IMG/VR virus record: IMGVR_UViG_3300033066_001295
Location: 32,001 to 96,000 of that record
Direction: 5' to 3' (one strand)
Length of the DNA: 64,000 bases
Source of the DNA: a virus
Lineage: Duplodnaviria > Caudoviricetes
The stretch's first letter is position 1. The number at the start of each line of letters is the position of its first letter. A model generated the notes under the pieces. That model did no database searches and was not told where the DNA came from. It saw only the letters and a program-made list of their open reading frames with translations. Positions 5,150 to 60,599 of this stretch are shown in pieces. The position numbers and the translations under genes were made by a program.

Positions 5150-5890
5150 CTAGTTCAATCCAGAACAGTACCTGAACAATTCAGATAGCTCGAACTCGAC
5201 ACTGGTCTCAGCCGCCCTCACTTTGCCATTCTCACAGCAAAACTCAGCAAAAGCGTTCTCATATTTTTCAATGTCAGTGCCGATTCCACCACGGTAAGCT
5301 GACAGAAGTGGCACAAGAGAGTAAGGGGTCAAACCCTTGCAAAAATCCTCAACTGGGGGGTATCCAAAAAGATCAAGCGTCTTGGCTTCCTGTGGTTTCA
5401 CACTGTTATCAATGAGGGCATTGACAACATGTATAACTTGAAGTTTGTCGATAGGAGTTTGAAATTTGTCAATAAGCTCCTTGTAGCTGCTGATGCCGCC
5501 TCTCAGATACTTCGTGAGACGGTCCATTGTAGCCATGTTAGGCTGAATGAGCTTGTGCTTCCATACCATCATCAAGTTGGTTGGTATGTTCAATTCCCAA
5601 TGACGCAGACCAAGACCTGTATAGAAGGTTACATCAATCCTGCTTCCACCGCGAAAGGCCATTGGGTAGATTGAAATAATGTCAGTTGACCTGTCATAGC
5701 GTGACATGGTGCTTGACCCACGCTCAAAGTTTTCGACAAAACGGATGCCCTTCAAACCCACATAGCTTTTTTTCAAACCAAGTGAGTCAATCCTTGCAAA
5801 CATAGCTGGGAGAGCCTCAGCCATGGAGGTCATCCGGCGCATGAAGTTTGGACTCTGACCGATGTACGTAGGTGTTATTGGAAGGGACAT
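5150..5890 (-). CDS. Hypothetical protein (morphogenesis cluster)
   Basis: 246-aa ORF, translationally coupled. Confidence 0.7.
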   Translation of the reverse strand: MSLPITPTYIGQSPNFMRRMTSMAEALPAMFARIDSLGLKKSYVGLKGIRFVENFERGSSTMSRYDRSTDIISIYPMAFRGGSRIDVTFYTGLGLRHWELNIPTNLMMVWKHKLIQPNMATMDRLTKYLRGGISSYKELIDKFQTPIDKLQVIHVVNALIDNSVKPQEAKTLDLFGYPPVEDFCKGLTPYSLVPLLSAYRGGIGTDIEKYENAFAEFCCENGKVRAAETSVEFELSELFRYCSGLN

Positions 5891-6342
5891 TATGAGTTGC
5901 TAAGTTTAGAGTATGTTGAAGGTTCAGCCTTCCAAGGGCCAACATAACCGGGGTAACTAGGCCCCCAAAAAGTGTTCTCGTGCTCGCGTTCAACCGCTCC
6001 CGGCTGCTCATGATGGTGGACATCCTGATGTGGCATCTCCTCCAGAGAGTCCCGGATTCTGGACATAAGGGCTGTCATTGGTGTAATAGGGCCATTCCCA
6101 GAAGGGTACTGCTTATGAAGGTCTGGACACCTTTCAGGCGTTAGAGGGGCAAGAAGATCGTACACATCACCAGTTGTAGCTCCAATGGTAGCGAGACGTT
6201 GAAGACCTTTTTGGAATTCAGGCCCATTTAACACCATTTCCTCATACTTTGACACAGTGTTTTGATACTCATCTTCCCAGTCAGTTTTGACCAGTGAAGG
6301 GCTATACCAAGGGCTACCCTCAAAAAGACTCAAGAATTTCAT
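5890..6342 (-). CDS. Putative internal head protein with N-terminal MKFLSLFE tag
   Basis: FxxLFE motif; lies in the head gene cluster. Confidence 0.6.
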   Translation of the reverse strand: MKFLSLFEGSPWYSPSLVKTDWEDEYQNTVSKYEEMVLNGPEFQKGLQRLATIGATTGDVYDLLAPLTPERCPDLHKQYPSGNGPITPMTALMSRIRDSLEEMPHQDVHHHEQPGAVEREHENTFWGPSYPGYVGPWKAEPSTYSKLSNS

Positions 6343-6833
6343 ACAGTAGGAGAGGTGTGAAGGCTGCTGGTTGGCTTCGGTGCGGATGAAGTCTGGCCTG
6401 ATGGGCTTTCTGGCCTCTCCTGCGCCTGTTGCCGGGGGTCGATTGGTTTGTTGTCATCAGCCCTCTCGTCACCAATGGAGATGGCTTCAAGGGGAACCTT
6501 CTCTGGTTCAGCTTGAGGGTTGACTGGGTCAACAACATAGACATCATTGCCATCAATCTTCATCACCTGACGCTGCATCATCTGCTTTGTATCGGGATTC
6601 AGGACGCCTATCTGCCTTCCGGGTGCAAGGTCACCAGCAAGTGCTTCAATGAGTTTTGCTGTGCGGGTATTCACCTGAACTGTGCTCAGAATACCCGTGT
6701 TATTGGACCGCAAAAGACCACTGCTAAGTGAACGAGCAATGGCAGTTTTTGATATACCACGGTGAATCAGCACTGACTCAGTGAACTGGCCGTTTAGCTT
6801 GGAGATGGCTCTGAGTTGAGAAAAGAAGTTCAT
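6339..6833 (-). CDS. Hypothetical virion-associated protein
   Basis: Coupled ORF with FTE-S and LIE-A sites. Confidence 0.65.
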   Translation of the reverse strand: MNFFSQLRAISKLNGQFTESVLIHRGISKTAIARSLSSGLLRSNNTGILSTVQVNTRTAKLIEALAGDLAPGRQIGVLNPDTKQMMQRQVMKIDGNDVYVVDPVNPQAEPEKVPLEAISIGDERADDNKPIDPRQQAQERPESPSGQTSSAPKPTSSLHTSPTV

Positions 6834-15973: not shown

Positions 15974-16189
15974 ATGCCAAAGAACATAACAAGAATAGAC
16001 TCTGAAACGGCACATGGGTGGCTTGTCAGAATGCAGCGAAAAAAGAAGAAGCTGGCGAAGTTTTTTTCTGACTATGCTCACGGCGGTGAGGAACCAGCTA
16101 TGAAACAAGCTAAGGAGTTTCTTACCGAGATTGATAACAGCTACTCAACCAGCTTTATCTCAGTCTTTCCAAGTGGACTTGAAAATTGA
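15974..16189 (+). CDS. Stand-alone AP2-like DNA-binding domain protein
   Basis: NITRID...HGWLVR...KFFSD..HGG...A...A pattern of AP2 domains. Confidence 0.6.
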   Translation: MPKNITRIDSETAHGWLVRMQRKKKKLAKFFSDYAHGGEEPAMKQAKEFLTEIDNSYSTSFISVFPSGLEN

Positions 16190-16680
16190 AGTGTGTTCAC
16201 ACGTAGTTCTACACCTTCCAAGAACCTGCCTGTGTACTTTTTACCGGCACCATTTTTAAGGTAGGCTATGGTGAGGTGAGGCTGATACTCGGGGTGGCTG
16301 CTATGGTGCTCAAGACTTGACTTCAAAAGGTTGTTCAGTTTGATTAAGGAGTCAGACTCAACGTCCACTTTCAAAACATCATACTCTTCGTTCTCGAAGA
16401 GTGTTATTTTACCAAGCTTCAGGCTAAAGCATCGTTGGTCTCTGAGCAGGTCCTTAGTCTTGTCTGGTGACTTGTCAAGAATGCCATAGAGTACGGTGAC
16501 ATGGAACTCGTCTTCAAGGCCTTTCTCATTTGGTGACAGGTCTTCAGGGTAGATAAGCTGCTGAAAGCGAGAAATAGCTGAATCAATCTCCTCCGGCAAC
16601 ATGGCCATAACACAGGAGTACTTGTACGCCTCGTTCAAACTGTCTTTTTTATATCCAAAGCACTCCAAAAATCTGAGCAT
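16141..16680 (-). CDS. 2H phosphoesterase (T4 gp57B/Acb1-like or 2'-5' RNA ligase family)
   Basis: Two HxT motifs: FHVTVLYG and PHLTIAY. Confidence 0.8.
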   Translation of the reverse strand: MLRFLECFGYKKDSLNEAYKYSCVMAMLPEEIDSAISRFQQLIYPEDLSPNEKGLEDEFHVTVLYGILDKSPDKTKDLLRDQRCFSLKLGKITLFENEEYDVLKVDVESDSLIKLNNLLKSSLEHHSSHPEYQPHLTIAYLKNGAGKKYTGRFLEGVELRVNTLQFSSPLGKTEIKLVE

Positions 16681-16681: not shown

Positions 16682-16691
16682 TAGATATGTA
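16682..16691. promoter_or_regulatory. Overlapping divergent TAnnTA late-type elements (TAGATA on +, TACATA on -)
   Basis: 14-nt gap between divergent ATGs at 16680 and 16695; CTACATATCTA is also found before ATG 10823. Confidence 0.55.
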
Positions 16692-18913: not shown

Positions 18914-21058
18914 ATGATTATCGAAACGCTCGGTTCGGCCTCCGTTGAAGCCGGTGAAGGATTTGAATCTTCTGATTACACAGTGGACAATGCACTCGCC
19001 ATGCTTGTTCTTCGGGACAAAATTTATGTTCAGCCTCAGCTTGCAGTTGTTCGTGAAGTTATGAGCAACGCTCGTGACGCTAACCGAGAAAATGGCAAAG
19101 CAAAAGTCCCAATTGAGGTTTTCATTGACGAATCAAACCCTGTCTTGATCATCAAGGACAGTGGTATCGGGATCAGCCCTGAACGTCTGAAGTTTTTCAC
19201 GAGATATGGGGGTTCAACCAAGCGCAATGACAACACACAGACAGGCGGATGGGGTCTTGGGTGCAAAAGCCCATTCGCTGTCTCTGACCAGTTCACTGTA
19301 AACACAGTTTGGGCGGATGAAAAAGGTAAGCACCAAGCAACCTACCTGATGTTCATCAATGACAGCAGCTTGAGTTCCCTATCAACTCTGAGCAAAAAGG
19401 ATGTTTCTGACAAAACACCGACCGGCACAGAAATTCATGTCCCTATTCAGCAGGATGATGTGAGACTATTCCGCAGGTATGCTGAAAGTGTTTCCAAATT
19501 TTGGGGTCACCCTTTGGTGAAGGATTCTGTCATGCCCATTCTTCACTGGGCAGCTTTGAAGCCCGTGTACCCTGAAGTTGTTGAAGGGCACAATTACTGT
19601 GAAGGCGAAGGTGTTGTCATTGACGGAATCCATTATGACTTCGACACGGACAAGTTTCTTGAGTTTCCAACCAACTTGAAAAAGGTTGCCAGCAAACTCA
19701 TTTATTTCTTCAATACAGGTGAGATTGATGTCAACCCTACCCGCGAAGACATCAACTACCAGTCTGCCAAGACTTTTGATGCCATCTACTCTAGCGTCAC
19801 CCAAGCTAAGGATGAGATCAAAGCTGAGGTGATGAAAAAGCTCGAAGAATTTAAGGACACCCCTTTGCTCGCAGCCATGTGTCTGTCACAGATGGACGGA
19901 AGACTCAAGATTGTGGCGAGTGAAGTGATGCAGGAGCTTAATCTGCCGTCACTGGATGCCAATATAACAATGGATGATCTGGAACTTTCTGATGAGTTCA
20001 AGATTGTGTCACACAGCACCCTTGTTCCCCTCATGAGCTACCGCAACAAAGCTTTGTCGGTTGATATGAGGGTATGCACAAGAAGCAATTTCAAGCTTGA
20101 GAATGTAGTCTCTGATGATGTAGCCTTGGTGCTTCGAGACCTGAGTGGATCGAAGATCAACACCTATATCCGTGGGGCACTCACCCAGTTTAAGACTGTG
20201 GTCTTGATTCCTACTACCCCAGAGAAAAGTAGCATTGTGGACGGTAAGCCAGTTGTGGTGCCGTCTGACATGGCCAAGATAAAGGACATTATCAGTAAGA
20301 CTACAGGCCTAAAGGACCTGAAACTCTATCTCCTGTCCTCCTTTCAGAAGACTTCACCACCTGTTCACCTGAAAAAGAGAAGCAAGGCTGCCCCAAAGGA
20401 ATTTTTACGGGATGCCAAGAGGGGTATGTCTCTCACTGAACGTGTAGTCACTACCAAGCGTGGTGGAGTGATGGTTGTTTGCCGTTATGGAAATGGATAT
20501 ATCTATGACAAAACTTTTGCAGAAAGCAGGGACAAGCTAAAAGATGCCCCAGACTCAGGGTATAAGTATAACGCTGAAAATCTGCCTGATGATGTGCCTG
20601 TTTATGGTGTCTTGCCGAAGTGTGTGAAATTCCTCAGTGAAGATTGGATCACTCCTTCTGATTTCAGAAAGAAAGCCTACGACAGGAAAAAGTCTCAAAG
20701 CATTGAAAAGGTCATGGCCTTTGAGAAGCTGGATTTCATGCAGTCACTTGACTTGAAAGTCAATTCTTTGAGAGTGTTTGCCAACAAACTGGGTCCGAGC
20801 AAGCTTAGAACTTTCATTCTTGAAGTGTTGGATACCCCTTATGTCAAAATACATGGTAAGGTGGAAGTAGATTATAACGACGAAAACCGTGTTAAAGATC
20901 ACCGGTCATACACTCAAACAGAAGTTGAAGAAGCAGCATATAAGCTGAAGGAGGACATTCTCAAAACTTACCCGTTGCTGAGAGCCTCTCACCCATCGCT
21001 GAACAGGTCCACACTCGAAAAGGAAATCATTCTCTACGTCAGGTCAAAAAAAGCTTGA
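18914..21058 (+). CDS. rIIA: rIIA-like protein (N-terminal GHKL/Hsp90-type ATPase)
   Basis: REVMSNARDA, IKDSGIGIS, STK...GGWGLGCKSPF, GTEI, INPTRE-like motif; followed by rIIB. Confidence 0.85.
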   Translation: MIIETLGSASVEAGEGFESSDYTVDNALAMLVLRDKIYVQPQLAVVREVMSNARDANRENGKAKVPIEVFIDESNPVLIIKDSGIGISPERLKFFTRYGGSTKRNDNTQTGGWGLGCKSPFAVSDQFTVNTVWADEKGKHQATYLMFINDSSLSSLSTLSKKDVSDKTPTGTEIHVPIQQDDVRLFRRYAESVSKFWGHPLVKDSVMPILHWAALKPVYPEVVEGHNYCEGEGVVIDGIHYDFDTDKFLEFPTNLKKVASKLIYFFNTGEIDVNPTREDINYQSAKTFDAIYSSVTQAKDEIKAEVMKKLEEFKDTPLLAAMCLSQMDGRLKIVASEVMQELNLPSLDANITMDDLELSDEFKIVSHSTLVPLMSYRNKALSVDMRVCTRSNFKLENVVSDDVALVLRDLSGSKINTYIRGALTQFKTVVLIPTTPEKSSIVDGKPVVVPSDMAKIKDIISKTTGLKDLKLYLLSSFQKTSPPVHLKKRSKAAPKEFLRDAKRGMSLTERVVTTKRGGVMVVCRYGNGYIYDKTFAESRDKLKDAPDSGYKYNAENLPDDVPVYGVLPKCVKFLSEDWITPSDFRKKAYDRKKSQSIEKVMAFEKLDFMQSLDLKVNSLRVFANKLGPSKLRTFILEVLDTPYVKIHGKVEVDYNDENRVKDHRSYTQTEVEEAAYKLKEDILKTYPLLRASHPSLNRSTLEKEIILYVRSKKA

Positions 21059-21096
21059 CCATATAACAAAATTCAGTTAATTACAACCCAACATCT

Positions 21097-22179
21097 ATGA
21101 AATACGTCCAGCATATCAAAACTCCTCGCGGCCTCACTATTGTTGCCGTTGATGGCAAAAAAGACGTGGTGAAAACTTTTGAGGCATCCTCAAATGAGTA
21201 TGCCAAGGGCATTGAATTCATCCGTCAAAAGAAGCTGAACAAGCTAGTCGAACTGCTCGTACCGAAGAAGGCACCTGCTGGAGTGAGGGTGGACAAGGAC
21301 GTGGTCTGGTTCAACGGTGAAGAACTGCCGCCTGCTCTCGCAACCAAAGCAAGACAGTTTATCGAAACAGGCACGCCTATTGCCTCATTGAAAGCCTTCT
21401 GGGAACGCTGCAAGAAGAACCCAACTGAGTACAGCCGTCAGTCATTCTATGACTTTGTCGGCAAACACGGGGTAACCATCTTGCCAGATGGGCGTGTCCT
21501 TCTCTACAAGGGTGTCAGAAATGACATGAAAAGCCACTATGATGGGACCACACTCCACACGTTTGGTGTTCCGGTCAAAGTTGACCGTAAGAGGTGTGCT
21601 TCTACCCCACATGATGCTTGTGGTTTCGGTCTTCATTGTGCTCCGTTTGAGTATGTCAAAAACTACTACAGCAGTGGTATCATTATTGAGGTGGTTGTCG
21701 ATCCAGAGCATGTCACCTCTGTGCCAGCCAATGAGCAGAAACTTCGGTGCTGTGAGTATCTGCCGAACTGTATGGCTGACAAAAAGGGTGTTGGTATCAA
21801 AACCGGCTTGGTAACCACAACCAAAAAGGTGACCAAGAAGGCTCCTGAAAAGCCAACTTCCAAGAAGTACACCGTGATTCCATTCCTTGAATCAATCACC
21901 ATTGTCGGGTCACTGATGACTCGTGCAGGGTTCTCCCCGAAACAGAACGTCAAGGTGTGGTCTGGACGTGACAGGGTTATCATCGCACCTGCCTCTATTG
22001 AGGATGATGAGGTAGCTAAGCGTTACAAGGTGAAAGACCCTGTCTTAGCGACCACCAAGGAGTCATGCAGTCTTCGCATCCGGGCACTCATCATGGGCAA
22101 GCACCTTGGTGTGGACCGTAAAGGCCAGTTCAAAGCAACAGTTCTCGAACAGAATGCCATCGCCATCTACAAAAACTAA
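21097..22179 (+). CDS. rIIB: rIIB-like protein
   Basis: NPT...FYDF, ILPDGRVLLYKGV, CGFGLH, VVVDPEHVTSVP, KLRCCEY. Confidence 0.88.
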   Translation: MKYVQHIKTPRGLTIVAVDGKKDVVKTFEASSNEYAKGIEFIRQKKLNKLVELLVPKKAPAGVRVDKDVVWFNGEELPPALATKARQFIETGTPIASLKAFWERCKKNPTEYSRQSFYDFVGKHGVTILPDGRVLLYKGVRNDMKSHYDGTTLHTFGVPVKVDRKRCASTPHDACGFGLHCAPFEYVKNYYSSGIIIEVVVDPEHVTSVPANEQKLRCCEYLPNCMADKKGVGIKTGLVTTTKKVTKKAPEKPTSKKYTVIPFLESITIVGSLMTRAGFSPKQNVKVWSGRDRVIIAPASIEDDEVAKRYKVKDPVLATTKESCSLRIRALIMGKHLGVDRKGQFKATVLEQNAIAIYKN

Positions 22180-23339
22180 TGACGGCTACCCAGCATTCTG
22201 TTATATCCAACATCAAAAAGGCTAAGAAGCCAGAGGACTTGTTTGGTCCAATCTCAACCGACGTATCCAAGCAACAGGAGACGCTGGAGAAGATCAAGCA
22301 AGTCTTCTGGAAGATGTCGAAGGTGATTCACCCTGACATCTACAAGGCCAAGGATGCTTCTGAGCTTTTTGACAAGCTTAACAAGCTCAGAGGCGAGGCT
22401 GAAAAGAAATGCACAGGTGAGAAGGACCCGTTGTACAACAACAACGGTGTTCTAGTTAAGCCAGTTGAGTTCAAAAGCCGACACCTCACCTACAGCCTGC
22501 TCAGAAGGTTGGCAAATGGAGGCACGTGTGGCATCTTTGAGGGCATAGCCAAGGACAGGCTCAATAACACACTGAATGTCATTGCTAGGGCAGCTAAAAG
22601 CTCGAAAGACAATGACTTGATGGAGAGAGAGGCAAAGGCTTTTGACATCATCAACAAAAAGCTGAAGGAGATCAGCCAGTGGGAAGAAGGAAAAAAAGCT
22701 GCTGAGCGTTTCTCGTGGAAAATCCCCTATTTTGTTGAGTCGGTCAAAATAAAGGAGCCTCACTCAGACAAGCTCAAGGTGGTGAACATCTTCTCCAGAC
22801 TTGATGAGTATAAGTCTGGGTGGTATTCACTTGAAGAGATTCACGCTCAGTATCCGAAGGGTGTTGATATGAGGATCGCTGCCTTCATTTTCAACAGAGT
22901 GCTTGAAGCTCTTACCCTTTCCCATAGCTGTGGTGTTATACACGGTGCTGTTACACCAAACCATATCCTAGTTCATGCTGAAACCCATGTTGGTAACTTA
23001 ATTGACTGGACATCTTCCTGCCATAGTGGTATAATAACAGTGCCATTCATGGACAAAAGATACACAGACTTTTTCGCCCCGGAAACACTCAATACCAAGG
23101 TGGCTTTTGCCTCCAGTGACATCTACATGGCAGCCAAGTGCATGGTGTACTTGATCGGTGAGGATCATGTCTGGACTCCTAAAGAGGAGCCAGTTCGCAA
23201 GGTTCTTAACCTTTGCCTTCAACCAAACAGAGCTTTGCGGCCAACAGCCGAGCAAGCTTATGAAAAATTTCGACAGGCTCTCAGAGACACATTCGGTGCC
23301 CCTAAGTTTGTCGAGTTAACAATGACCCAAAAGGTCTAA
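22179..23339 (+). CDS. J-domain fused to a Ser/Thr-kinase-like (probably pseudokinase) domain
   Basis: SKVIHPD J-motif; ANGGTCG loop; catalytic loop IHGAVTPNHIL lacking the HRD Asp; IDW, APE, SDIY. Confidence 0.75.
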   Translation: MTATQHSVISNIKKAKKPEDLFGPISTDVSKQQETLEKIKQVFWKMSKVIHPDIYKAKDASELFDKLNKLRGEAEKKCTGEKDPLYNNNGVLVKPVEFKSRHLTYSLLRRLANGGTCGIFEGIAKDRLNNTLNVIARAAKSSKDNDLMEREAKAFDIINKKLKEISQWEEGKKAAERFSWKIPYFVESVKIKEPHSDKLKVVNIFSRLDEYKSGWYSLEEIHAQYPKGVDMRIAAFIFNRVLEALTLSHSCGVIHGAVTPNHILVHAETHVGNLIDWTSSCHSGIITVPFMDKRYTDFFAPETLNTKVAFASSDIYMAAKCMVYLIGEDHVWTPKEEPVRKVLNLCLQPNRALRPTAEQAYEKFRQALRDTFGAPKFVELTMTQKV

Positions 23340-24653: not shown

Positions 24654-25970
24654 ATGTCACAGGCAAAAATCATTGTTGGATTAGGTTATGGAGACGAAGG
24701 CAAGGGCACTGTCGCTGATTATCTTTGTAAGGCAGAGGGTAGATCACTGGTGGTGAGATATAACGGCGGGTCACAAGCTGCCCACAATGTGGTTACTGAT
24801 GATGGTAGGCATCACACTTTCTCTCAGATTGGCAGTGGCACCTTTCAAGGGGCAGGAACTCTCCTGTCTCGTTATATGATGGTGGACCCGATAAGTCTTG
24901 CCATTGAAGCTATCAGGCTTTCACCCAAGCTCAGCTTACACGCTCTTAGCCATCATTATGTTGATGCTCGCGCCCCTGTTATAACACCATTCCATGGGGC
25001 TGCCAACAGGGTTAAAGAGTGGCTTAGAAAGTCAAAGCATGGCTCATGTGGTATGGGTATCGGTGAACTTGCTGAAGACCTTCTCTATAACCCAATGGAG
25101 GTGATACGTGTAGGTGACCTAGCACGAGGTTGTTCTGACACTTTGAAGAAGATTCAGGCAAGAAAACGTGCCCTCTTTGGCTCTATTGAACTAGGTTCTG
25201 TAGATGAAACCATCAAGGACTCAATAACCACTCTGCTCGATCCAAGAGTTATAACAGAAATAGACTCGTCCTTCAGAAGTATAAGTGAAGAACTCAATAT
25301 TCTGAATGAGGACCAAGTAAATGACTTGCTGAAGAAGAATAGCCTTCTGTTCGAGGGTGCTCAGGGGGTTGGCTTGGATGAGTGGCATGGCTTCCACCCC
25401 TACACAACATGGTCAACTACGACTCAGTTTAATGCCCTGAAGGTTCTTGAGGAAGCTGGCATCAAAGACTTTGAGACAGTTGGCATTCTAAGGTCCTACT
25501 CAACAAGGCACGGTGCTGGTCCTTTTGTTACAGAGGATGCATCAATGTCATCCATATCACCTAAAGAGCACAATCGCAAAGGACTCTATCAAGGGTCATT
25601 TCGTTCAGGACCTTTTGATGCTGTTCTTACCCGATATACCTCTGGGTGTGTGAACAAAATATCACCTCTCACAGGTGTGGCTGTCACTCACATGGACCTG
25701 TTTGAAGCTGCTGGTAGAAAATACTGCGACAGCTATGTGAGTAAGGACGATTGGCCATATCACCTGAAGCCAAGGTTCGATAAAAACTTGGATGCCCAAG
25801 AAAAGATGGGTGCTGATGTGTCTAGTTGCTCACCACTTCTTGCTGAAGCTGGAAGTTCTGACGAATTTCTTGGCTATGTCGGCAAGTGGTGTCACGCTCC
25901 AGTAAGTATCATTTCATGTGGCCCAGCCACAGCAGACAAAGTAATAACAGAATGCAGGGTGAAAAAGTGA
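24654..25970 (+). CDS. Divergent adenylosuccinate-synthetase-family ligase
   Basis: GLGYGDEGKG, RYNGGSQAAH, FEGAQG, HPYTT, TRHGAGPF; the PurA TTGR loop is absent. Confidence 0.85.
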   Translation: MSQAKIIVGLGYGDEGKGTVADYLCKAEGRSLVVRYNGGSQAAHNVVTDDGRHHTFSQIGSGTFQGAGTLLSRYMMVDPISLAIEAIRLSPKLSLHALSHHYVDARAPVITPFHGAANRVKEWLRKSKHGSCGMGIGELAEDLLYNPMEVIRVGDLARGCSDTLKKIQARKRALFGSIELGSVDETIKDSITTLLDPRVITEIDSSFRSISEELNILNEDQVNDLLKKNSLLFEGAQGVGLDEWHGFHPYTTWSTTTQFNALKVLEEAGIKDFETVGILRSYSTRHGAGPFVTEDASMSSISPKEHNRKGLYQGSFRSGPFDAVLTRYTSGCVNKISPLTGVAVTHMDLFEAAGRKYCDSYVSKDDWPYHLKPRFDKNLDAQEKMGADVSSCSPLLAEAGSSDEFLGYVGKWCHAPVSIISCGPATADKVITECRVKK

Positions 25971-27975: not shown

Positions 27976-28668
27976 ATGCCAAGTGAGTTCATAAACCTTT
28001 TTGAATCCGGGCTGTCACGTGTGTGGCAAGCCTCAGAGAAGTTTGATATAGCCATGCTGACAGCGTGGCGAAACAGGATGATGAACTGTGTTAAGAAGGA
28101 TCACTGCACTGGTGAGGTCCTGACACGTGAGCAGAAGAACGAGAGGAATACCCATCTGAAGGCTGCTCTGCTCCAAAGAGGCTATGGTGTAACAAAAATC
28201 GACGGTAGCTACATTGAAGAGTACTCAACCTCGAATGAGAAAGAGTGTGCTGAGCAGTCATTCTTTGTTGTTAACCTGAACAACGATTTTTCATTTACCC
28301 ACGTCATAGCAAAGCTTGGTGCCGAATACTGCCAGTCTTCTGTCTTTCTCAAGCCTGTAGGTGATGCACCTTACCTTCTTGGAACAAACAATGAGGAGTG
28401 GCCCGGTTTGTGGAAAAAGATTGCGCTTCCTAACCTAAAAGTCGGATGGGATAGGGAGCCAGCCAAGGTTGATGGGAAAGAAATTCCCGGAAGACCAAGA
28501 GCTAGCTATATGGGCTACTCAAAAGTTGGGGGCAGGCCCTTCGGCTGGACAGAGAGCCTTGAGACCAAAAGCATCTTGCAGAACAACGCAAAGTCAGTTG
28601 TTGCCCTGTGGGGAATGAAAGTCCTTGAGAGTGCCGGTGTCAAAGATGCACCGTTTACAAAGCAATGA
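27976..28668 (+). CDS. Putative head-packaged protein with N-terminal FINLFE tag
   Basis: TAACTA-ttaac-ATG; MPSEFINLFE-SGLSRV; LTAWR, GSYIE, E.SFFV, YCQSSV motifs. Confidence 0.7.
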   Translation: MPSEFINLFESGLSRVWQASEKFDIAMLTAWRNRMMNCVKKDHCTGEVLTREQKNERNTHLKAALLQRGYGVTKIDGSYIEEYSTSNEKECAEQSFFVVNLNNDFSFTHVIAKLGAEYCQSSVFLKPVGDAPYLLGTNNEEWPGLWKKIALPNLKVGWDREPAKVDGKEIPGRPRASYMGYSKVGGRPFGWTESLETKSILQNNAKSVVALWGMKVLESAGVKDAPFTKQ

Positions 28669-29486
28669 ACCTAACAGAAACACCAGATACAATTAGGTTT
28701 AGCAAGCTCGTGTCACTGAGCTTTGATAACCCGGCAGCAACCACCTTTGTCGTTTTACCCGGAGGATGTGTCCTTGCCTCAAAACGTCCACACCAGTTCA
28801 TTTATAATGCTCTACGTATCTGCACAGGTGAGAGGCCTTACCTTGGCCAGACAGTAAAGAGGTCTGGGAAAGAAGCACTGAAGGTGCTAAAGGACTATGA
28901 GTCATGGGTAGCACCGGGATTGCCTTTATCAGAAGAGGCCATTGATGGTGTAATTGAGGCTCAAAAGAATTACAAAGGTAACCAGCAAGCAGGAGACTTC
29001 TGGAGGTCTGTTCTTGTTGTTGGACGCTTGTGGAAAAATGTGAAGATACCTGAGATCGGTGTAGTATCAGCCATGTCATTTTGGCTTTCGTCTGAAAAGC
29101 TCACCAACTCTGTCATTAGTGCCCTATCCAATGCCTTTAAGGTGACTGGACCACTCTATGTGGAAACACTGGACTCATCGAAGCCTGATCTGTATAACGC
29201 TCCATCAGACACCTTCTTGCCAGCCGAGAAGAGGCCAGTCTCTAGCTCAATAGCACCTCATCTGAGTAAGGAGGAGATATTTGACATTGTTGCTAGAGCA
29301 CATAATGCTCCTTGGACTCTGAACGCTCTGGAAAGAGAAGTTGCCGCCGAATGGTACGGTAAAGGCCTTCCAGTTCCGGGGACAGATGGTGGTTACAGCA
29401 CTAGGGCTGAGTTGAACTTCAGGAAAACCATTGGTGACTCAGTGATCAAGACCAGATTTCTTGATCTTTTTGAGAAGCACCCTTGA
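28665..29486 (+). CDS. Putative head-packaged protein with C-terminal FLDLFE tag
   Basis: Starts MNLTE-T and ends RFLDLFEKHP; resembles 53307-54137. Confidence 0.65.
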   Translation: MNLTETPDTIRFSKLVSLSFDNPAATTFVVLPGGCVLASKRPHQFIYNALRICTGERPYLGQTVKRSGKEALKVLKDYESWVAPGLPLSEEAIDGVIEAQKNYKGNQQAGDFWRSVLVVGRLWKNVKIPEIGVVSAMSFWLSSEKLTNSVISALSNAFKVTGPLYVETLDSSKPDLYNAPSDTFLPAEKRPVSSSIAPHLSKEEIFDIVARAHNAPWTLNALEREVAAEWYGKGLPVPGTDGGYSTRAELNFRKTIGDSVIKTRFLDLFEKHP

Positions 29487-45208: not shown

Positions 45209-45763
45209 ATGCATCTGTCATCTACACATTTTGTAGCCTTGTTTGAGGGCTGGAAGGAAACTGAGAAAGCCCGTGCTGAGGCACGAAAGCTTACAGATAC
45301 AAACCCTTCCGAAGAGCAGAAAATGGCAGGCAACTATGCCAAAGGGAAGTTCTGGTGGAATGCGATGGAAATATCCATTGAGAACCCAAAAGGTTCAGTG
45401 CGGCGTGGGAAGGACAAGAAGGGTGTCGAATGGGAGACCAAGATGCCCGCTGATTATGGCTATATCCGTAGAACTGAATCGGAAGCGGATGGTGATCACA
45501 TTGATGTCTTCATTGGGGATGATTTGTCCTCACCCATGGTGTGGATTGTGAATCAGATGAACCCAGACAACGGACGCTTTGATGAGCACAAGTGTGTGAT
45601 TGGAGTGGTGCTTGAGAAGGACGCAAAGGAGCTTTATCGTAACGCTTACACTAAAAGCTGGACAGGTATGGGGACAGTTGTTGGAATGACTGTGGATCAG
45701 TTTAGGCTATGGGTAGAAAAGGGTGACACATCAAAAGAGGTACCTGAGAAATGGATTTTCTGA
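45209..45763 (+). CDS. Inorganic pyrophosphatase (InPase domain of polyvalent proteins) with FVALFE tag
   Basis: ISIENPKGSVR, YGYI..TE..DGDHIDVFIG, FDEHK; TATCTA 5 nt upstream. Confidence 0.85.
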   Translation: MHLSSTHFVALFEGWKETEKARAEARKLTDTNPSEEQKMAGNYAKGKFWWNAMEISIENPKGSVRRGKDKKGVEWETKMPADYGYIRRTESEADGDHIDVFIGDDLSSPMVWIVNQMNPDNGRFDEHKCVIGVVLEKDAKELYRNAYTKSWTGMGTVVGMTVDQFRLWVEKGDTSKEVPEKWIF

Positions 45764-52750: not shown

Positions 52751-53320
52751 ATGAGAGTGATAGTTGCTGGCAGCAGAACTTGCAAAAAGTACCCCATCGT
52801 CAAGGAGGCTATAGAGCTATCTGGTTTCAAGCCAACGCTCATTATCAGTGGAACAGCTACAGGTGCAGACCGCTTCGGGGAAAAGTGGGCTGCCGAAAAT
52901 AACATACCTGTAGAACTATTCCCGGCAGACTGGTCACAGGGTAAAGGGGCCGGATACAGGAGAAATGAAGAGATGGCATCAAAAGCTGATGCCCTTGTTT
53001 GCTGCTGGGACGGAAAGAGCAAGGGCAGCAAACACATGATTGATATTGCCAAGCGTGTTGGCTTGAAAGTGTTTGTCCATGAGTTCAACCCAGAAATATA
53101 CTCTCTGAGACTACTCCCCTACTGGTCAAAGGTCACAATTAAAAGTGGTGAGACTCTTGAAAAATGGGTGGCTGGATACCACTGTCCAGCATGTAACAAG
53201 AGAGGTCAGTGGAGAACAGGTGTTTATTTTGACCACATGATGAGGTGCTTTAATGGGTGTGATCCAGCACCTATCTGGATTCCCGGAGAAACTTACCTCA
53301 AGTATGTTAAAAAGCTGTGA
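52751..53320 (+). CDS. SLOG superfamily protein (DUF2493/YspA-like) with C-terminal Zn ribbon
   Basis: VIVAGSR, ISGTATGAD, ADW..GKGAG.RRN, WDGKSKGS.HMI. Confidence 0.88.
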   Translation: MRVIVAGSRTCKKYPIVKEAIELSGFKPTLIISGTATGADRFGEKWAAENNIPVELFPADWSQGKGAGYRRNEEMASKADALVCCWDGKSKGSKHMIDIAKRVGLKVFVHEFNPEIYSLRLLPYWSKVTIKSGETLEKWVAGYHCPACNKRGQWRTGVYFDHMMRCFNGCDPAPIWIPGETYLKYVKKL

Positions 53321-54137
53321 CAAAACTCTCCTGCCTCAGCCTTGAGTTATAGGCGGCAGTGTTGTCAAAACCTGCCTTTGAAGCTTGTGAGGCAGCCATG
53401 CTGGCACCCCATCCAGCTTTTCTCTCAGCAGCTTCTTTTTCGGCTGCTTCTGCCGCTTCGGCTGCGTTTCTGCTGTTAGACCTCAGCATGGCAATCTGCA
53501 TTGAGATACGCTTGTGATCCTCTGGAGTTGCTGTGTGAAGAAGAGCAGTAAGCTCAGCAATCTGTTTGGCTGTTTCTGGATCAGTCTGCCTGACAAACTT
53601 GCCACTATCATTGAACTCGTGCCACTCGTTGTCGTGAAAGTTGTCATCTTGAACCCACACTTTTCTGGCAGGCTTGTTGAGGTATGACGTTGTAGCTGTA
53701 GCAGCTTCAATCACCTTGGTTTTCCAGTCAGGATCAACCCTGATTACACTTCCATGAAAAGAGATGAGAACATTGTCTCCTGAAACCCATCCTCGACCGG
53801 GAGTCTTCAAGGCCAGTTTTGCTTCACGCCTCATCTGAAACTCTTTTGGATGTGCTGCAATCTCGTCATAACTGATTGTGTTAAACAGCCCGGTCCTGCC
53901 AATACTGACAAGCTCCTCATAATTTCTTGAATTCAAAGCAGACAGCTTGTTATGGGTCATGTAGCGCAATGGCTCACCAAAGACTAGCTCAACGTCGTCA
54001 GTGACTTCGTCTTGACCGGCAAAAACAATCTCCCCATTTATCCAGCCAAAGGTGACACAATTATTTTGAAAGGTGTGACGCTCAGTGTTGAATATCACTT
54101 CTTCGGCGTTCTCAAAAAGATGGATAAATTTTCCCAC
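53307..54137 (-). CDS. Putative head-packaged protein with N-terminal FIHLFE tag
   Basis: TATCTA (54143-54148) 5 nt upstream of GTG; MGKFIHLFE-N. Confidence 0.65.
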   Translation of the reverse strand: MGKFIHLFENAEEVIFNTERHTFQNNCVTFGWINGEIVFAGQDEVTDDVELVFGEPLRYMTHNKLSALNSRNYEELVSIGRTGLFNTISYDEIAAHPKEFQMRREAKLALKTPGRGWVSGDNVLISFHGSVIRVDPDWKTKVIEAATATTSYLNKPARKVWVQDDNFHDNEWHEFNDSGKFVRQTDPETAKQIAELTALLHTATPEDHKRISMQIAMLRSNSRNAAEAAEAAEKEAAERKAGWGASMAASQASKAGFDNTAAYNSRLRQESFVTAF

Positions 54138-54171
54138 ACTGATAGATACGTCAAACAGTGGTCACATCAGG

Positions 54172-55365: not shown

Positions 55366-57540
55366 ATGAACCTATCCTTTCTGGAACTTTTTGAGACTGA
55401 GGCGACTGAAGCTGAGCTTATTGAGTCTGATAGTGTTATCATTGGCTGCACTAATCGAGATTTCTCCAGCAGGTCGAGGACAATACCGGCAGGTTCATTT
55501 TCAAGAGATGACATGTTTGGTCGTTACACGCACGAAAACTTGAGACTTGATGATGATTTCAACTGGAGATACCGTCCAGATACACGAACACTCTACTGGT
55601 GGACACCTCCAGTAGATGAGGAATACACCACTGCTGTCATTGCTTATATCAGGAAAAAAACAGGATCGGAACCACTGAGGCAAAAGAATGTTGAGTCCGA
55701 GCTATCACTTGCTCACGGTCTCAAAAATCCTGTAAAGGCAGAGAGCATCTTGTCTGAAGATTTTACAGACAGGCTGAAGTGGGTGGTTAATAATGAAAAA
55801 AACCCTGTAACAGCCTTCCTAACGCTTGATGCTGTTATAAGTAATAGGCCATCTTATGCTAGTGATATTAGGAAAGGTGCAGAGCAAGTCGCATCTGATA
55901 TGAGGTCACTTGCCAATGACAACTACGACCCAAGTATTCCTGAGACCAACACCCTTACAGATGCTCAAGTTCTTGAGAAGCTGAAACAGATGTTGGATGA
56001 ATGGCTGAGCACAGGCAAGTGGTATGATGACAGTGTGATCCCAGACAGAAGTCCTGTTGAAAAACTTGTCGGCTGGATACACAACTGGATGAGGAAAGGT
56101 GTTGAAGCAACGAACGAGATCAAAACCTTCATCAGGTTCAAGAATGAAATAGCAGACTGGTTCATGGCTACACGGCCAAACATCATGAGCCTGAAGCCAT
56201 CTCAAGCGGCAGCCAGATCACACAGGTGGCACGCTGCAATGGCGCGGAAGGACGCTGAGAGGATTGCCATCGAGGGCACAAAGCACCTGAAGAAGGTTGC
56301 TGAGTTGGGTGACGGTGTGGAAATATATGAACTTACAGTTAATGACCTGAAGGACGAAGGTTCCACCATGAAACACTGTATTGGGCGGATGCCACGTTAC
56401 ACTGATGGTATTACCAAAGGAACCAACAAAGCTTTCTCAATCAGGAGAGATGGCAAGAGGCTCTACACCGTCTTTACTACAACTGACAAAGGTAACATAG
56501 GTGGCCACAGCTTTGAATCACTACCGACAATCGAGCAGTTCAAGGCCAAGACTAACCTCATACCCGGCCAGAAGGGAACTGACATAGAGGCTGCCGTGGC
56601 TGCAAAGAAATGGTTCAAGTCGCAGGGGTACTATGTCAAGTGTCATGACCTCCACATATTGGCACTTGATGAATCGGTGGCTGAGTCTCTTCTTGCTGAA
56701 ATGCCTGTTGGCAAATTTGAGCTTATTGGTGATTGGTCACCGGGAGCAAAGCCACGTGGTTATGACAAGCCGTCCATTGGTATCGTAACCAGTCAGGCTG
56801 GTGTGGAAAAGATCAGGCAGAAGTGGGCGAAAGTAAATGAAACATTTGATATTTACTTGGTAAGATCACCGAAAGGCTACAAGCATGTTGAGGTGGGTGA
56901 GGTATCGCCGGAATGGGTGCAGAAAAATCTTGGCATCAACCTTGAATATGACGATGACAAGATCACAATGATCTACACCAACAACAAGGGTTCAGAAAAG
57001 GTTCCGATGACTCCTTGGACACTGGCTCACAGATTTGGTCATGCAAGTTCGAGGATGTTCAAAGACAGTAGCTACACAAAAGATGAGTCAAACCCTGTCA
57101 TGCACTTCACCCGTCAGCTTGACTCTAGTCTTACCAAGATAGCTCAGGTTGTTTATGGGATCAGCCAGTTCAAGGACTACTATGGTGGGTATTCTGGATC
57201 ATCAAACTACCCAAGAAAAGAGGTAATCTTCAGACAGATATGTCAAAATCTTGGGACCATGAAAAGTTGCCGAGATGGCAACCTACGAAACTGGGGAGAG
57301 TTTGCTTTTGAGGTGCTTGCCCAGTATATGATCACAGGTAAAGTATCACTGAACAGGAACCTTAGCAGTGTTCTTGCCACCAGCTTTGCATGGGGCAGAC
57401 CACAAGGGCCTTGGAAAAGGAGTATGTCACCAGAACAGCAAATAGCTGTTGAGGGTATCATTGATGACCTTGAGATGGAGGCTGAAAACTATGCTTTTGA
57501 AACCTTAAAGAGGGCAATTGGCCGAATTTATGTCATGTAG
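55366..57540 (+). CDS. Multidomain putative virion protein with FLELFE tag, PcfJ-like domain and zincin-like C-terminal domain
   Basis: MNLSFLELFE; WH..., LKDEGSTMKHCIG, FSIR, IEQFK; TPWTLAHRFGH. Confidence 0.65.
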   Translation: MNLSFLELFETEATEAELIESDSVIIGCTNRDFSSRSRTIPAGSFSRDDMFGRYTHENLRLDDDFNWRYRPDTRTLYWWTPPVDEEYTTAVIAYIRKKTGSEPLRQKNVESELSLAHGLKNPVKAESILSEDFTDRLKWVVNNEKNPVTAFLTLDAVISNRPSYASDIRKGAEQVASDMRSLANDNYDPSIPETNTLTDAQVLEKLKQMLDEWLSTGKWYDDSVIPDRSPVEKLVGWIHNWMRKGVEATNEIKTFIRFKNEIADWFMATRPNIMSLKPSQAAARSHRWHAAMARKDAERIAIEGTKHLKKVAELGDGVEIYELTVNDLKDEGSTMKHCIGRMPRYTDGITKGTNKAFSIRRDGKRLYTVFTTTDKGNIGGHSFESLPTIEQFKAKTNLIPGQKGTDIEAAVAAKKWFKSQGYYVKCHDLHILALDESVAESLLAEMPVGKFELIGDWSPGAKPRGYDKPSIGIVTSQAGVEKIRQKWAKVNETFDIYLVRSPKGYKHVEVGEVSPEWVQKNLGINLEYDDDKITMIYTNNKGSEKVPMTPWTLAHRFGHASSRMFKDSSYTKDESNPVMHFTRQLDSSLTKIAQVVYGISQFKDYYGGYSGSSNYPRKEVIFRQICQNLGTMKSCRDGNLRNWGEFAFEVLAQYMITGKVSLNRNLSSVLATSFAWGRPQGPWKRSMSPEQQIAVEGIIDDLEMEAENYAFETLKRAIGRIYVM

Positions 57541-58060
57541 TTTTACCGGTCTGTTTGAGTCGAGCAACCCTTGGCTTAGTGTGAAGCAGTCAAGAACTGC
57601 TGAAGAGGCTGAGGCATGTCTCAAACAATTTGAGCAGGCTTGGGGCAGATATAGCACTGCTTTCTATATCAGCCCGAATGAGATCATCAAAGTGAGTCCT
57701 GAAGACAAAGCCTTCGCTGCCTTTGCCATGATGTGCCATAGAGGAAATAACAGCTTGTTTCCAAAGGTGTTTGACTTTGTGTCCCTGCCTGATGGCACGT
57801 TTTGTTGCAGGATGGAGAGAGTGACGCCTCTAATCAAATTCAAGGATGCCTATAGTGTCGAAGAGTTGGTTGATTGCCTTAGTGACGGCAGTGAGGTTCC
57901 AGTAGAGTATGATGGGCTGATGCAAAGTCTCCACTTCACCGAGAGTGACCTTGACTCATTTATAACACAAGTATCAAGCCTTGGTAAGAATGATATTCAT
58001 GTTAACAACATGGGCAGGCGCAAAGACGGATCGCTAGTTATTTTTGACCCTATAAACTGA
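57530..58060 (+). CDS. Minimal Ser/Thr-kinase-like protein with FTGLFE tag
   Basis: GRYSTAF, IIKV, FPKV, MERV, DIHVNNMG, VIFDP. Confidence 0.72.
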   Translation: MSCSFTGLFESSNPWLSVKQSRTAEEAEACLKQFEQAWGRYSTAFYISPNEIIKVSPEDKAFAAFAMMCHRGNNSLFPKVFDFVSLPDGTFCCRMERVTPLIKFKDAYSVEELVDCLSDGSEVPVEYDGLMQSLHFTESDLDSFITQVSSLGKNDIHVNNMGRRKDGSLVIFDPIN

Positions 58061-58481
58061 TGGCTAGGTCTTTTCTCAACTTATTTGAAACAAGTGACGT
58101 TGCTGTCATAAAGTCTTTCATTAGAAGATATGTGCCTGAGAATGGTGGGTTGCAAGCTTGCCGTCATGGTGGTTGCTTTGAATTTGTGGAAGCGTTTATA
58201 GCTGAACATGACGATGCTGAAATGTGGGAGACACTTGAGCTAGATGATAGCCATGTCGGTCTCCCCTTAGTGATGTCTTTTGAACTGGTGAATCAACTGA
58301 TTGCAAGTGAGAAACAAAAAGCCAAAAATCCAGCAAATGTTGAGTATGTCACTGACATAGGTATCACTGGTGGGCACGCTGGCACAAATATGTTTTTGAT
58401 GCTGCTGGCATCTCGTCATTTGAAGCTATAACAAAGTATTTTGACTCCTTGTCAAATGTTCACTGGGTACGAACAACATAG
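58060..58481 (+). pseudogene. FLNLFE-tagged papain-like protein with apparent frameshift near 58380
   Basis: GGCFEF...GGHA in frame 0; WHKYVFDAAGI...TT* continues in the -1 frame to 58481. Confidence 0.5.
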
Positions 58482-58493
58482 GAGCACGAAGTC

Positions 58494-60599
58494 ATGATCA
58501 TCTACAGAGGAGTAAGTGCACATCAAAGACCAGCACCGGGGTGGTTCTATCATCCTGATATTGAGTTTGCACGTCAATTCACTCAGAGCGGTCAATTCAA
58601 TGAGATACTGAAAGCTGAACTTCAGGATGATGCAATCTATTACCATGACCCACTTCCTTACGGTGGTGACCCTGATGAAGTTGATGGTGTTATCGAGTTG
58701 GCCAAAGCTGCTGGCAAGTATGCTGTAGCTTGTGACGAAGGCGGCGGATATGAGCCTTCCATACTGGTGTTGAAGTCAGCACTGGCAAAGCGTGTGATGA
58801 GGTTGCTTGGTAGATGCACAGAGATGGACGAATCAACAAGCCTAGTTGAGGTCCACTATAGTGATGCCTTCCCAAAAGCATTCAATGAGTTTTATGCCAA
58901 ATGGAAGGGCAAGAAGTCCGATCCTAACCTCTATGTCAGGTTTGACAATGGCAACACCACAGATTCTCTATCCAGAGGTGCTAGCAGCAATCCAAGCCAC
59001 AGTGATCCAATTGGAACTTACGCTTACCCTTTGAAGTATGTTATCGACCATCCCGGAGACATCTGGTACGGACATAACAGCAAGTTCATCAAGGTTATCA
59101 GGAACAAAGCCAAGAACAAGCTGCTTCTCAGCAGTCTTGAATGGTGGAGAATGAAAAACCTGTTTTTCAGGTCAAGCATCAAAAATGACTTGGAACAGGC
59201 AGCCACATACTACCCTGACAGGGCTAAGGGTGTAACTGGTCCGGGAAAGATATTCATGTCAGCGGTTCAGATGAACTTCGATGACGCTGACCCACCAAGA
59301 AGCAAAAGAAAAGATGGCTACAAAGCTCCGGTGATACGGAGCAGTGAGGACCAGACAAGACGTATTTTGAGCCTTGGCATTGATGCTCTTGAGGATAGGG
59401 CCTCACGCTTGTCCCAAGCATCCATCAACGACCGTGAGCCTGAACAGATTGTGTGGCTCAGGCCGACTTCATTTGAAATACTTGATACATTCAGGCTGTC
59501 AGACCCCAAAACTCACCGGTCACAAGTCATTCTCGATGCTGACAGGATAAAGAGAAAAATAGCCGCCTTGGTAGCAGGTATCATGGGTGATGGTTTGAAG
59601 GACCATGAGAAGAACAGCAATGACTATTGGACCACGAAGGAGCGTAGGATAAACATCGAGCACTACGACTCGTCCCTTCAATGGCGAATGCAGAACCTGA
59701 AGATGGGGCAGAAGAAGCACAAGATGTTCAAGAAGTCGGAAAAAACCGGCTTCAAGGTCAACATTGACAGTGAGAGAGGCAAGTTTGCCTTCACCGTTTT
59801 CTCAGATGATAAAATCAAGCCAGCCCTTGGAGTATTTGCCATTAACTGGAAAAACTCCCCGGAGCAAGACTCTGGGGAATGCTACTCATTGGCAAGACAG
59901 AAAGCGGAGGAGAAAGCAGAACGTGATGCTAGGTGGGCCGAAGAAAGGATAAAAGAGGATCAGCGAATTATTGAGATATGGCCAAGCCAGATAATGGGTA
60001 GGTACAACATGCTGGCTAAAAGGTTGAATTTGCCGTTGATCCCGCCTAATCTTGACAATGACACTATCACCACCACTTACAGGGGAATGCTATCAAAAGA
60101 CTTTGATGATGTCTTAACCGGAGGTAGAGCTTACCTGCCAGCCCTTAAAGGTTATGAAGAGCTTGTTAAGGTAGCTGCCACGGGTGGTGGAAGACCAGCC
60201 AGAATACCACAGCACTTGATGAATGACGTGAACAACATTTTGACAAGGGACGTGAACGAATCAGAACAAGTTTGCAGAGCGGTCGATCTTGACGGGACAC
60301 TGGCTCATTATGACGGCTGGAAAGGCGAGCACCACATAGGCGAGCCTGTACCCAAGATGCTCGATAACGTGAAGACGTGGCTGAAGCAGGGCGACAGGGT
60401 TGTCATCTTCACCGCCAGAGCAAAGACGGATTCAGCCAAGAGCCATATCAAAAAGTGGTTGTCGAAGCATGGTCTCCCAGAGCTTGAGATAACTAACGTG
60501 AAGACACCAAAAATGGACTTCTTCTATGATGACAAGGCTGTTGGGATTGCTGCCAACACTGGCCTGCCTTCACTTAGCTTTGTCAAAATGTTTGAATGA
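58494..60599 (+). CDS. Multidomain protein: ART-like N-terminal domain(s) and C-terminal HAD phosphatase, ending FVKMFE
   Basis: IYRG...GWFY...FARQF; YVRF...PIGTYAYPL...EPEQ; AVDLDGTLA, IFTAR, TNVK, YDDKAV. Confidence 0.7.
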   Translation: MIIYRGVSAHQRPAPGWFYHPDIEFARQFTQSGQFNEILKAELQDDAIYYHDPLPYGGDPDEVDGVIELAKAAGKYAVACDEGGGYEPSILVLKSALAKRVMRLLGRCTEMDESTSLVEVHYSDAFPKAFNEFYAKWKGKKSDPNLYVRFDNGNTTDSLSRGASSNPSHSDPIGTYAYPLKYVIDHPGDIWYGHNSKFIKVIRNKAKNKLLLSSLEWWRMKNLFFRSSIKNDLEQAATYYPDRAKGVTGPGKIFMSAVQMNFDDADPPRSKRKDGYKAPVIRSSEDQTRRILSLGIDALEDRASRLSQASINDREPEQIVWLRPTSFEILDTFRLSDPKTHRSQVILDADRIKRKIAALVAGIMGDGLKDHEKNSNDYWTTKERRINIEHYDSSLQWRMQNLKMGQKKHKMFKKSEKTGFKVNIDSERGKFAFTVFSDDKIKPALGVFAINWKNSPEQDSGECYSLARQKAEEKAERDARWAEERIKEDQRIIEIWPSQIMGRYNMLAKRLNLPLIPPNLDNDTITTTYRGMLSKDFDDVLTGGRAYLPALKGYEELVKVAATGGGRPARIPQHLMNDVNNILTRDVNESEQVCRAVDLDGTLAHYDGWKGEHHIGEPVPKMLDNVKTWLKQGDRVVIFTARAKTDSAKSHIKKWLSKHGLPELEITNVKTPKMDFFYDDKAVGIAANTGLPSLSFVKMFE

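Follow-up and report, generated by a model that had tools for sequence, protein, structure and literature searches.

Bacteriophage T4's internal proteins (IPI, IPII, IPIII) carry at their N-terminus a short capsid-targeting sequence (CTS) that reads MKTYQEFIAE (Mullaney & Black 1996; PMC9026906, PMC8442874, PMC12373910). This CTS, which loads them onto the scaffolding core, is the only feature shared by the internal proteins of T-even phages, and ip genes are recognised by their leader (PMC3012670, PMC12373910). Targeting was mapped to residues 4 and 7 of the peptide, cleavage to residues 8 and 10 (PMC9026906). Proteases of the gp21 type cut C-terminal to Glu, in T4 at LIE-9 of gp21 itself and at both ends (ITE-6 and LTE-619) of the ADP-ribosyltransferase (ART) Alt, which is packaged and injected (PMC5694885, PMC9026906). 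In phiKZ, 201phi2-1 and SPN3US, propeptides of head and ejection proteins are cut at S/A/G-x-E or A-x-E (PMC5694885, PMC10052503). Here, we describe a peptide tag with the consensus F-x-x-[LM]-F-E at the termini of otherwise unrelated proteins of an uncultured T4-related phage. The window, i.e. the whole stretch of DNA from which the analysis started, comprises 64,000 nucleotides (bases 32001-96000 of the 207,816-bp genome, IMG/VR record IMGVR_UViG_3300033066_001295). We consider it likely that the tag is the CTS of this phage lineage, a dialect of that of T4. Such a mechanism would be known in kind from the T4 CTS; new would be the large repertoire of carriers and the use of either terminus.

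A shared terminal F-x-x-[LM]-F-E tag

All counts are based on our own greedy calling of open reading frames (ORFs), which yielded 349 non-overlapping ORFs with 63,127 residues in the genome. The motif F..[LM]FE matched 18 times in this proteome, whereas 300 within-protein shuffles gave 0.81 matches on average and never more than 5. Scores from a position-specific matrix built from the instances were bimodal, with the true sites at or above 20 bits and the rest of the proteome at or below 11 bits. One match was dropped, since its ORF (genome 172882-173595, +) runs antisense to a better ORF on the minus strand and is unlikely to be genuine. The 17 credible copies divide into 13 N-terminal, three C-terminal and one internal copy. 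The window contains nine of the strict copies and, in addition, a degenerate variant; eight copies are located elsewhere in the genome (Table 1). N-terminal copies start 2-8 residues past the start Met or codon (binomial P = 5e-15), and C-terminal copies end 0, 1 or 3 residues ahead of the stop (P = 0.006).

Counted back from the Glu, the Phe at -5 is invariant, position -4 is hydrophobic and position -1 is Phe. All 17 copies terminate in [L/M]-F-E. The Glu is followed by S, G, T, A or N in 13/13 N-terminal copies. With the tag masked, BLASTP revealed no pairwise similarity among the carriers at E <= 0.01. The tag is thus a real and highly non-random feature shared by proteins that are otherwise unrelated. 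An earlier note, made from the letters of this DNA, had drawn the motif from ten protein termini, among them two C-terminal copies and the variant MLRFLECF...LNE-A, and had expected terminal enrichment over shuffled background on unrelated proteins. All ten termini were recovered in place, and both the enrichment and the unrelatedness of the carriers hold.

Codon usage within the tag is mixed. Over the 18 copies the Leu position is written with five Leu codons and one Met codon, the Glu with GAA and GAG at 9:9 and the first Phe with TTT and TTC at 12:6. At the second Phe, all 18 copies have TTT. This regularity and the recurrence of TTTTTGA near promoters raised the possibility of a nucleotide-level element, which was rejected: the TTT-GAR bias is genome-wide, with TTT in 136/151 Phe-Glu pairs outside the tag, and the other codons vary. 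The tag is therefore under selection as a peptide and not as DNA or RNA. As a separate observation, the hexamer TTCGAA does not occur in the 207,816-bp genome, for which base composition predicts ~56 copies, and TCGA is rarer than expected (572 versus 808), which suggests avoidance of restriction sites.

A second feature of the tagged genes is the sequence just ahead of their start codons. A TAnnTAT box located 3-6 nt ahead of the start codon, with no Shine-Dalgarno sequence, was found at 25 of the 349 genes, and only 0.6% of all ATGs carry it at this spacing. It precedes 8/13 N-tagged genes compared to 17/336 others (Fisher P = 2e-7). Tagged genes that lack a box of their own, including all three C-tagged genes, are found downstream of a tagged gene with a box, in the same operons. 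The box is also present ahead of the prohead protease gene, a scaffold-like 199-aa gene and genes of 811 and 1220 aa in the structural region. The T4 late promoter reads TATAAATA. From the likeness of TAnnTAT to this sequence and from the genes that it accompanies, we infer that TAnnTAT is a late promoter. The tag is absent from all 17 genes that follow sigma70-like early boxes (TTGAC-N-TAnnnT). The timing proposed in the earlier note, with tagged genes or operons behind TAnnTA elements and no motif on ORFs with early promoters, is in accordance with these counts. The boxes were located at window positions 3248-3254, 16685-16691, 27965-27971 and 54142-54148 and at 21 other gene starts genome-wide. 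Since they lie only 3-6 nt from ATG or GTG and no Shine-Dalgarno sequence is present, late mRNAs probably have little or no leader.

Candidate protease and related leaders in other phages

A candidate enzyme for the tag is encoded in the head module at the beginning of the window. The 682-aa protein matches Pfam Peptidase_S77 (PF03420) with 34.4 bits, above the cut-off of 27. In its alignment with T4 gp21 (PDB 5jbl), it has His (MEHP) and Ser (GVSSRG) at the two positions that are taken as catalytic. Beyond the protease domain the protein is Pro/Glu-rich, helical and scaffold-like, and it appears to be a protease-scaffold fusion. Since gp21-type proteases cut after (L/I)-x-E, the L-F-E end of the tag fits a site of this enzyme. 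Tag-like sequences occur also within the 682-aa protein itself, with VAKAFE/S precisely where the protease domain ends and GFIFE/S and KPKLFE/A as further sites (a slash follows the Glu). We propose this protein as the enzyme acting on the tag and possibly also as its receptor. Co-folding with a 66-aa tagged protein gave a score of 0.00 without controls, which is evidence neither way.

The neighbouring major capsid protein belongs to the gp23 family (Pfam Gp23, PF07068, 113 bits). Its L-x-E sites PLTE/AKGW and GLDE/ATST precede the Gp23 domain and are kept in a 66%-identical relative. This relative, a 65-kb viral contig with mostly structural genes (G001), and one 1.3-kb metagenome fragment were the matches in the capsid protein search; no F..LFE tags were found in G001. 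One tagged gene, of 150 aa, lies in the head operon itself, in a slot which we take to correspond to that of the core proteins gp67 and gp68 in T4. Its product has no Pfam or PHROG match. The replication genes encode a PolA-type polymerase and a DnaB-type helicase, and a megablast search of the window against GenBank phages gave no match.

Orthologues, compared as single proteins, retain the tag. The PcfJ-like carrier has a 78%-identical orthologue (P0002) in which MNLSFLELFE is kept despite ~290 extra residues after the tag, and a 49%-identical one (P0003) that starts MFLRLFE; a search of viral contigs with this protein gave no match. An orthologue of the pyrophosphatase (P0039, 75% identical) starts MIIGFTRLFE, and remoter ones have other short leaders ending in L-x-E. 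The 95%-identical counterpart of the C-tagged 701-aa protein (P0005, encoded on the same 17-kb contig as P0002) ends SFVKMFESSEP, with the tag kept and the stop codon shifted.

The closest link to T4 is provided by the central ~460-aa domain of the 701-aa protein, which characterises 30-odd phage proteins from metagenomes as one family. In 31/32 of the homologues [LIVMF]-x-E stands directly ahead of the conserved start VHYxDxYPKGF. Most of them have ~490 aa and a leader of 5-15 residues, such as MAAFKQFLAE, MKSFKNYISE, MQRFKEFLTE or MRAYEILNE; some of these leaders are near-identical to T4 MKTYQEFIAE and some are in the exact T4 register. Where a further domain precedes the central one, as in the 701-aa protein, P0016, P0017, P0023 and a 1270-aa protein of contig L029, the L-x-E stays at the junction. 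The extra N-terminal domain of the 701-aa protein coincides with a tag at the C-terminus, and P0011, with the same cargo domain, starts MTSFLQLFE and thus has F..LFE at its N-terminus. Among four long viral contigs that carry the family, three encode an S77 protease, and the remaining one is 56% complete.

Genes adjacent to the family members on L024 and L029 show the same leader pattern. The 1270-aa polyvalent protein (L029:7523-11335, +) starts MKSFNTYISNINE and has a second, internal tag-like sequence, LKFKNFLNE, directly ahead of its ART-like domain, so that cassettes of tag plus domain seem to be concatenated in this protein. A similar code was found in one of the four long contigs, an unrelated 144-kb phage with 30% GC and an S77 protease (G002, L038-L045; IMGVR_UViG_3300042198_000079). 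There, 12 scattered ORFs out of 153 start M-x-x-F-x-x-[YF]-[LI]-x-E, and the core motif occurs seven times within the first eight residues compared to 0.25 in shuffles.

Taken together, the tag shares with the T4 CTS its length, the terminal L-x-E, the kind of enzyme partner, the timing and the conservation on fast-changing cargo, and for these reasons we interpret it as a CTS dialect. Similar to T4, a portable leader of ~10 residues ending in (L/I)-x-E is attached to otherwise unrelated, apparently late and non-essential proteins in the presence of a gp21/S77 protease, and the cargo is counter-defence-like and fast-evolving. The function put forward in the earlier note, an equivalent of the CTS at either terminus, is supported at the sequence level by the S77 protease, the L-x-E end, the late box, retention in orthologues and the T4-like tags of homologues.

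The related prohead protease of the phiKZ group also cuts after Glu, and many internal and ejection proteins are processed there. In contrast to the tag, the propeptides of that group are long and heterogeneous without a common short leader, and P3 is a small residue instead of Leu or Met. Like Alt, the 701-aa protein combines an ART-like fold domain with L-x-E at a domain junction and at the C-terminus. The C-terminal propeptide of Alt, however, comprises 63 residues and differs from its N-terminal leader, whereas in this phage one hexapeptide serves as N- or C-terminal tag. As an ART, Alt is moreover of the R-S-E type (PMC5512222); the 701-aa protein, in contrast, gave a PARP-like fold match with Z ~6.

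Docking, cleavage and competing explanations

We infer packaging, docking, cleavage and injection of the tagged proteins from these similarities, and the following course may be envisaged. Proteins made late would bear the tag as an N-terminal leader of 8-13 residues or, less often, as a C-terminal tail. Its hydrophobic residues (F at -5, L/M at -2, F at -1) would dock the protein onto a prohead core built around the protease-scaffold fusion. After closure of the shell, the gp21-type protease would cut past the Glu and free the N-tagged cargo in the head. A tag that ends at a C-terminal Glu cannot be cut off, so the release of C-tagged cargo must differ: it would lose at most 0-4 residues and be freed by degradation of the scaffold. 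Alternatively, and speculatively, the C-terminal tag might bind as a product-like ligand. At the next infection the cargo would enter with the DNA, bringing along the pyrophosphatase, the 2H/Acb1-like esterase, the PcfJ-like protein, the ART-fold/HAD protein and a dozen unknowns.

Several points weigh against reading the tag as a CTS or set it apart from that of T4. Tags with a C-terminal Glu cannot be removed by cleavage after this residue, and no C-terminal copies were found among the 153 ORFs of G002. The register differs from that of T4, with hydrophobic residues at -5, -2 and -1 instead of -6, -3 and -2, and the aromatic ones at -5 and -1 instead of -6 and -3. There are ~17 carriers compared to three in T4, enzymes among them, and the cargo is mostly acidic and in some cases large (up to 724 aa), whereas the T4 internal proteins are small and basic. 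The phage itself is only distantly T4-like, as shown by the PolA-type polymerase and the fusion of protease and scaffold. The [L]-x-E ahead of the ART-like domain could be part of the fold instead of a cleavage site. Finally, the phage is uncultured, and all support for packaging and cleavage comes from sequence.

Encapsulin cargo-loading peptides are short, C- or N-terminal, attach to the shell protein itself and remain uncleaved. Similar to these, the tag is a terminal peptide on unrelated enzymes that would be directed to an HK97-fold shell; the resemblance is functional only, and the tag is, unlike the encapsulin peptides, proposed to be cleaved. By analogy, the hexapeptide could be a bidirectional loading signal with optional cleavage, and CTS-type tags could be general, lineage-coded address labels in phages with S77 proteases. 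We put this wider view forward tentatively and expect that it may well prove wrong.

Features of the motif that go beyond cleavage favour a targeting function. A mere propeptide or zymogen lock, removable by the protease and without any role in targeting, would account for a motif that ends in the preferred site of this enzyme and for the many enzymes among the carriers, which would then reach the head otherwise or never. However, the invariant F at -5 and the hydrophobic residue at -4 exceed the needs of L-x-E cleavage, and in T4 the two functions were assigned to separate residues of one 10-mer (PMC9026906). A leader of eight residues is, furthermore, hardly able to inhibit enzymes of unrelated folds, and the C-terminal copies ending at Glu would stay on. 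We therefore regard this explanation as unlikely.

The bacterial sliding-clamp consensus QL[SD]LF, which occurs at either protein end, is resembled by FL[SDNE]LF, and a position at either terminus is typical of such linear motifs. The tag might accordingly dock effectors to another hub, either the host sliding clamp or a different host or phage protein, and recruit them to DNA or a complex. The details argue against such a role, which we hold to be very unlikely. Q is never present and is replaced by F in all copies, while the Glu never varies and a small residue comes after it. With a PolA-type polymerase and a DnaB-like helicase a T4-type clamp is not expected, and the carriers (pyrophosphatase, esterase, PcfJ-like protein, unknowns) are not replication proteins. 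Neither the late boxes on the genes nor the T4-CTS-like leaders at the equivalent position in homologues would be explained. The least probable explanation is a signal in turnover or translation, i.e. a degron for a host AAA+ protease, which could be placed at either terminus, or a feature of late mRNAs that seem to be leaderless (box 3-6 nt from the ATG), since 17/25 late-box genes are untagged, C-terminal copies cannot affect translation initiation, the codon variation leaves no constraint at the RNA level, and neither the conservation in orthologues nor the resemblance to the T4 CTS would be accounted for. None of these alternatives to a CTS explains the late boxes, the member in the head operon and the T4-like leaders of homologues together.

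Tagged proteins and their potential roles

The tagged and head genes are compiled in Table 1.

Table 1. Coordinates of tagged genes and of head genes; a slash follows the Glu of the tag.
Feature	Coordinates	Strand	Motif	Remarks
MKFLSLFE/G, 150 aa	window 5890..6342	-	nt 6319-6336	inside head-morphogenesis operon, between portal-side genes and protease
MPSEFINLFE/S, 230 aa	window 27976..28668	+	nt 27988-28005	late box TAACTAT at 27965-27971, 4 nt ahead of ATG
...RFLDLFE/KHP-stop, 273 aa, C-tagged	window 28665..29486	+	nt 29457-29474	
MHLSSTHFVALFE/G, 184-aa inorganic pyrophosphatase	window 45209..45763	+	nt 45230-45247	late box TATCTAT 4 nt ahead of ATG
(M)GKFIHLFE/N, 276 aa	window 53307..54137	-	nt 54111-54128	GTG start; late box TATCTAT at 54142-54148, 4 nt ahead of start
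MNLSFLELFE/T, 724-aa PcfJ-like	window 55366..57540	+	nt 55378-55395	box TATTTAT 8 nt upstream
MSCSFTGLFE/S, 176 aa	window 57530..58060	+	nt 57542-57559	shares operon with PcfJ-like gene
MARSFLNLFE/T, 123 aa	window 58060..58431	+	nt 58072-58089	
...SFVKMFE-stop, 701 aa, C-tagged	window 58494..60599	+	nt 60579-60596	
Degenerate leader MLRFLECFGYKKDSLNE/A, 179-aa 2H/Acb1-like	window 16141..16680	-		late box TACATAT 4 nt ahead of ATG
Carrier	genome 7647-8174	-		
Carrier	genome 27703-27984	+		
Carrier	genome 147055-147690	-		
Carrier	genome 153196-153396	-		
Carrier	genome 153914-154360	-		
Carrier	genome 168853-169758	-		
C-terminal carrier	genome 145859-147028	-		third C-tagged gene
Internal carrier, 148 aa	genome 27985-28431 (= L002:7985-8431)	-	residue 45	late-box gene
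Prohead protease fused to scaffold, 682 aa	window 1194..3242	-		gp21/S77 domain at residues ~31-195
gp23-family major capsid protein, first 381 residues	window 1..1144	-		gene continues past window start

The start of the C-tagged 273-aa gene overlaps the stop of the N-tagged 230-aa gene, which places both in one operon. The pyrophosphatase gene sits within an otherwise early-looking block, yet brings its own late box. In the 148-aa carrier, a Cys-rich, zinc-ribbon-like N-terminal part of 44 residues precedes the internal SFVKLFE/F and may be a longer removable propeptide. The leader of the 179-aa protein (MLRFLECF...LNE/A) is a possible variant of the tag. Two late-box genes, L005:16840-17187 (-) with MNSFISSMNE/S and L006:18079-18612 (-) with MATSFLQAID..., resemble degenerate relatives of it. 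We estimate the repertoire at ~17 proteins, or 19 if the degenerate leaders MLRFLECF...LNE/A and MNSFISSMNE/S are counted.

Twelve of the 17 carriers showed no family in Pfam or PHROG searches. The identity of the 184-aa protein as inorganic pyrophosphatase (InPase; PF18823, 2.9e-50) is secure. The 724-aa carrier is PcfJ-like (PF14284, 25.8 bits compared to a cut-off of 25), and the 179-aa protein with the variant leader is 2H/2'-5' ligase-like (PF13563, 33.9 bits versus 27), with the Acb1 model at 25.9 bits versus 27. The label of the 230-aa carrier as S-adenosylmethionine-lyase-like is weak (PF23780, 25 bits, below the cut-off of 28), and the similarity of the 176-aa carrier to a kinase-like family is negligible (phrog_15752, E = 0.001). 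Of the enzymes that the earlier note had assigned to the tagged set, the pyrophosphatase is thus well founded, whereas the kinase is weak and the ART is indicated only by a fold match with Z ~6.

This latter match concerns the 701-aa protein, which consists of three parts: an N-terminal domain (residues 1-119) ending ...STSLVE/, the conserved ~460-aa domain and a HAD-like domain. The fold was predicted with a local confidence (predicted local distance difference test, pLDDT) of 75-92 over residues ~120-585; the tail that contains the C-terminal tag was modelled with low confidence, as a short helix. The best fold match was a chain of the cyanophage A4 pre-ejectosome (Z 7.1), followed by PARP-type ARTs (Z 5.5-6.0, residues ~128-342). 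When the H-Y-E/D triad of ARTs was sought, H169, several Tyr and E315 proved to be near-invariant in the family of the central domain; a search by sequence profile gave no ART match for this domain. The predicted fold is suggestive of a PARP/ART-like central domain, though not conclusive.

An InPase domain was predicted to be packaged into virions and injected (Iyer et al. 2017, PMC5512222). We found this domain in 454 viral-contig stretches, and most of the 80 loci examined have it as an internal part of very large multi-domain (polyvalent) proteins. Similar to the polyvalent proteins of phages and conjugative elements, for which delivery together with the DNA was predicted, the tagged set comprises InPase, ART-like and hydrolase domains (Iyer et al. 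2017, PMC5512222). Here, however, the domains are encoded by separate tagged genes instead of one giant polypeptide, and the 1270-aa protein of L029 with its terminal and internal tags is intermediate between the two arrangements.

Two other gene groups were observed in the window. At 24654-27742 (+), a PurZ-like gene (phrog_1211, '2-aminooxy adenylosuccinate synthetase', 1e-73) adjoins an exonuclease-like gene and an HD phosphohydrolase; these genes may form a module for 2-aminoadenine (Z-base) DNA. At 18914-23339 (+), an rIIA-like gene (714 aa) and an rIIB-like gene (360 aa) precede a kinase-like gene of 386 aa.

Phage-injected proteins act ahead of any phage gene expression and are thus foremost in counter-defence. 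Apart from T4 and some giant phages, virion proteomics is the only way to find them. If lineage-specific L-x-E leaders mark the cargo, packaged effectors could be listed from metagenomic genomes. The unknown tagged proteins of this phage as well as the 12 ORFs of the 144-kb contig would then be prime candidates for anti-defence functions. If the wider view of a bidirectional label is true, the injected proteome would be readable from sequence, here with ~17-19 proteins including enzymes that are anti-restriction-like or directed, in an anti-CBASS-like manner, against the cyclic-oligonucleotide-based antiphage signalling system (CBASS). A C-terminal tag would, in addition, give more freedom in the design of foreign proteins that are to be loaded into T4-type heads.

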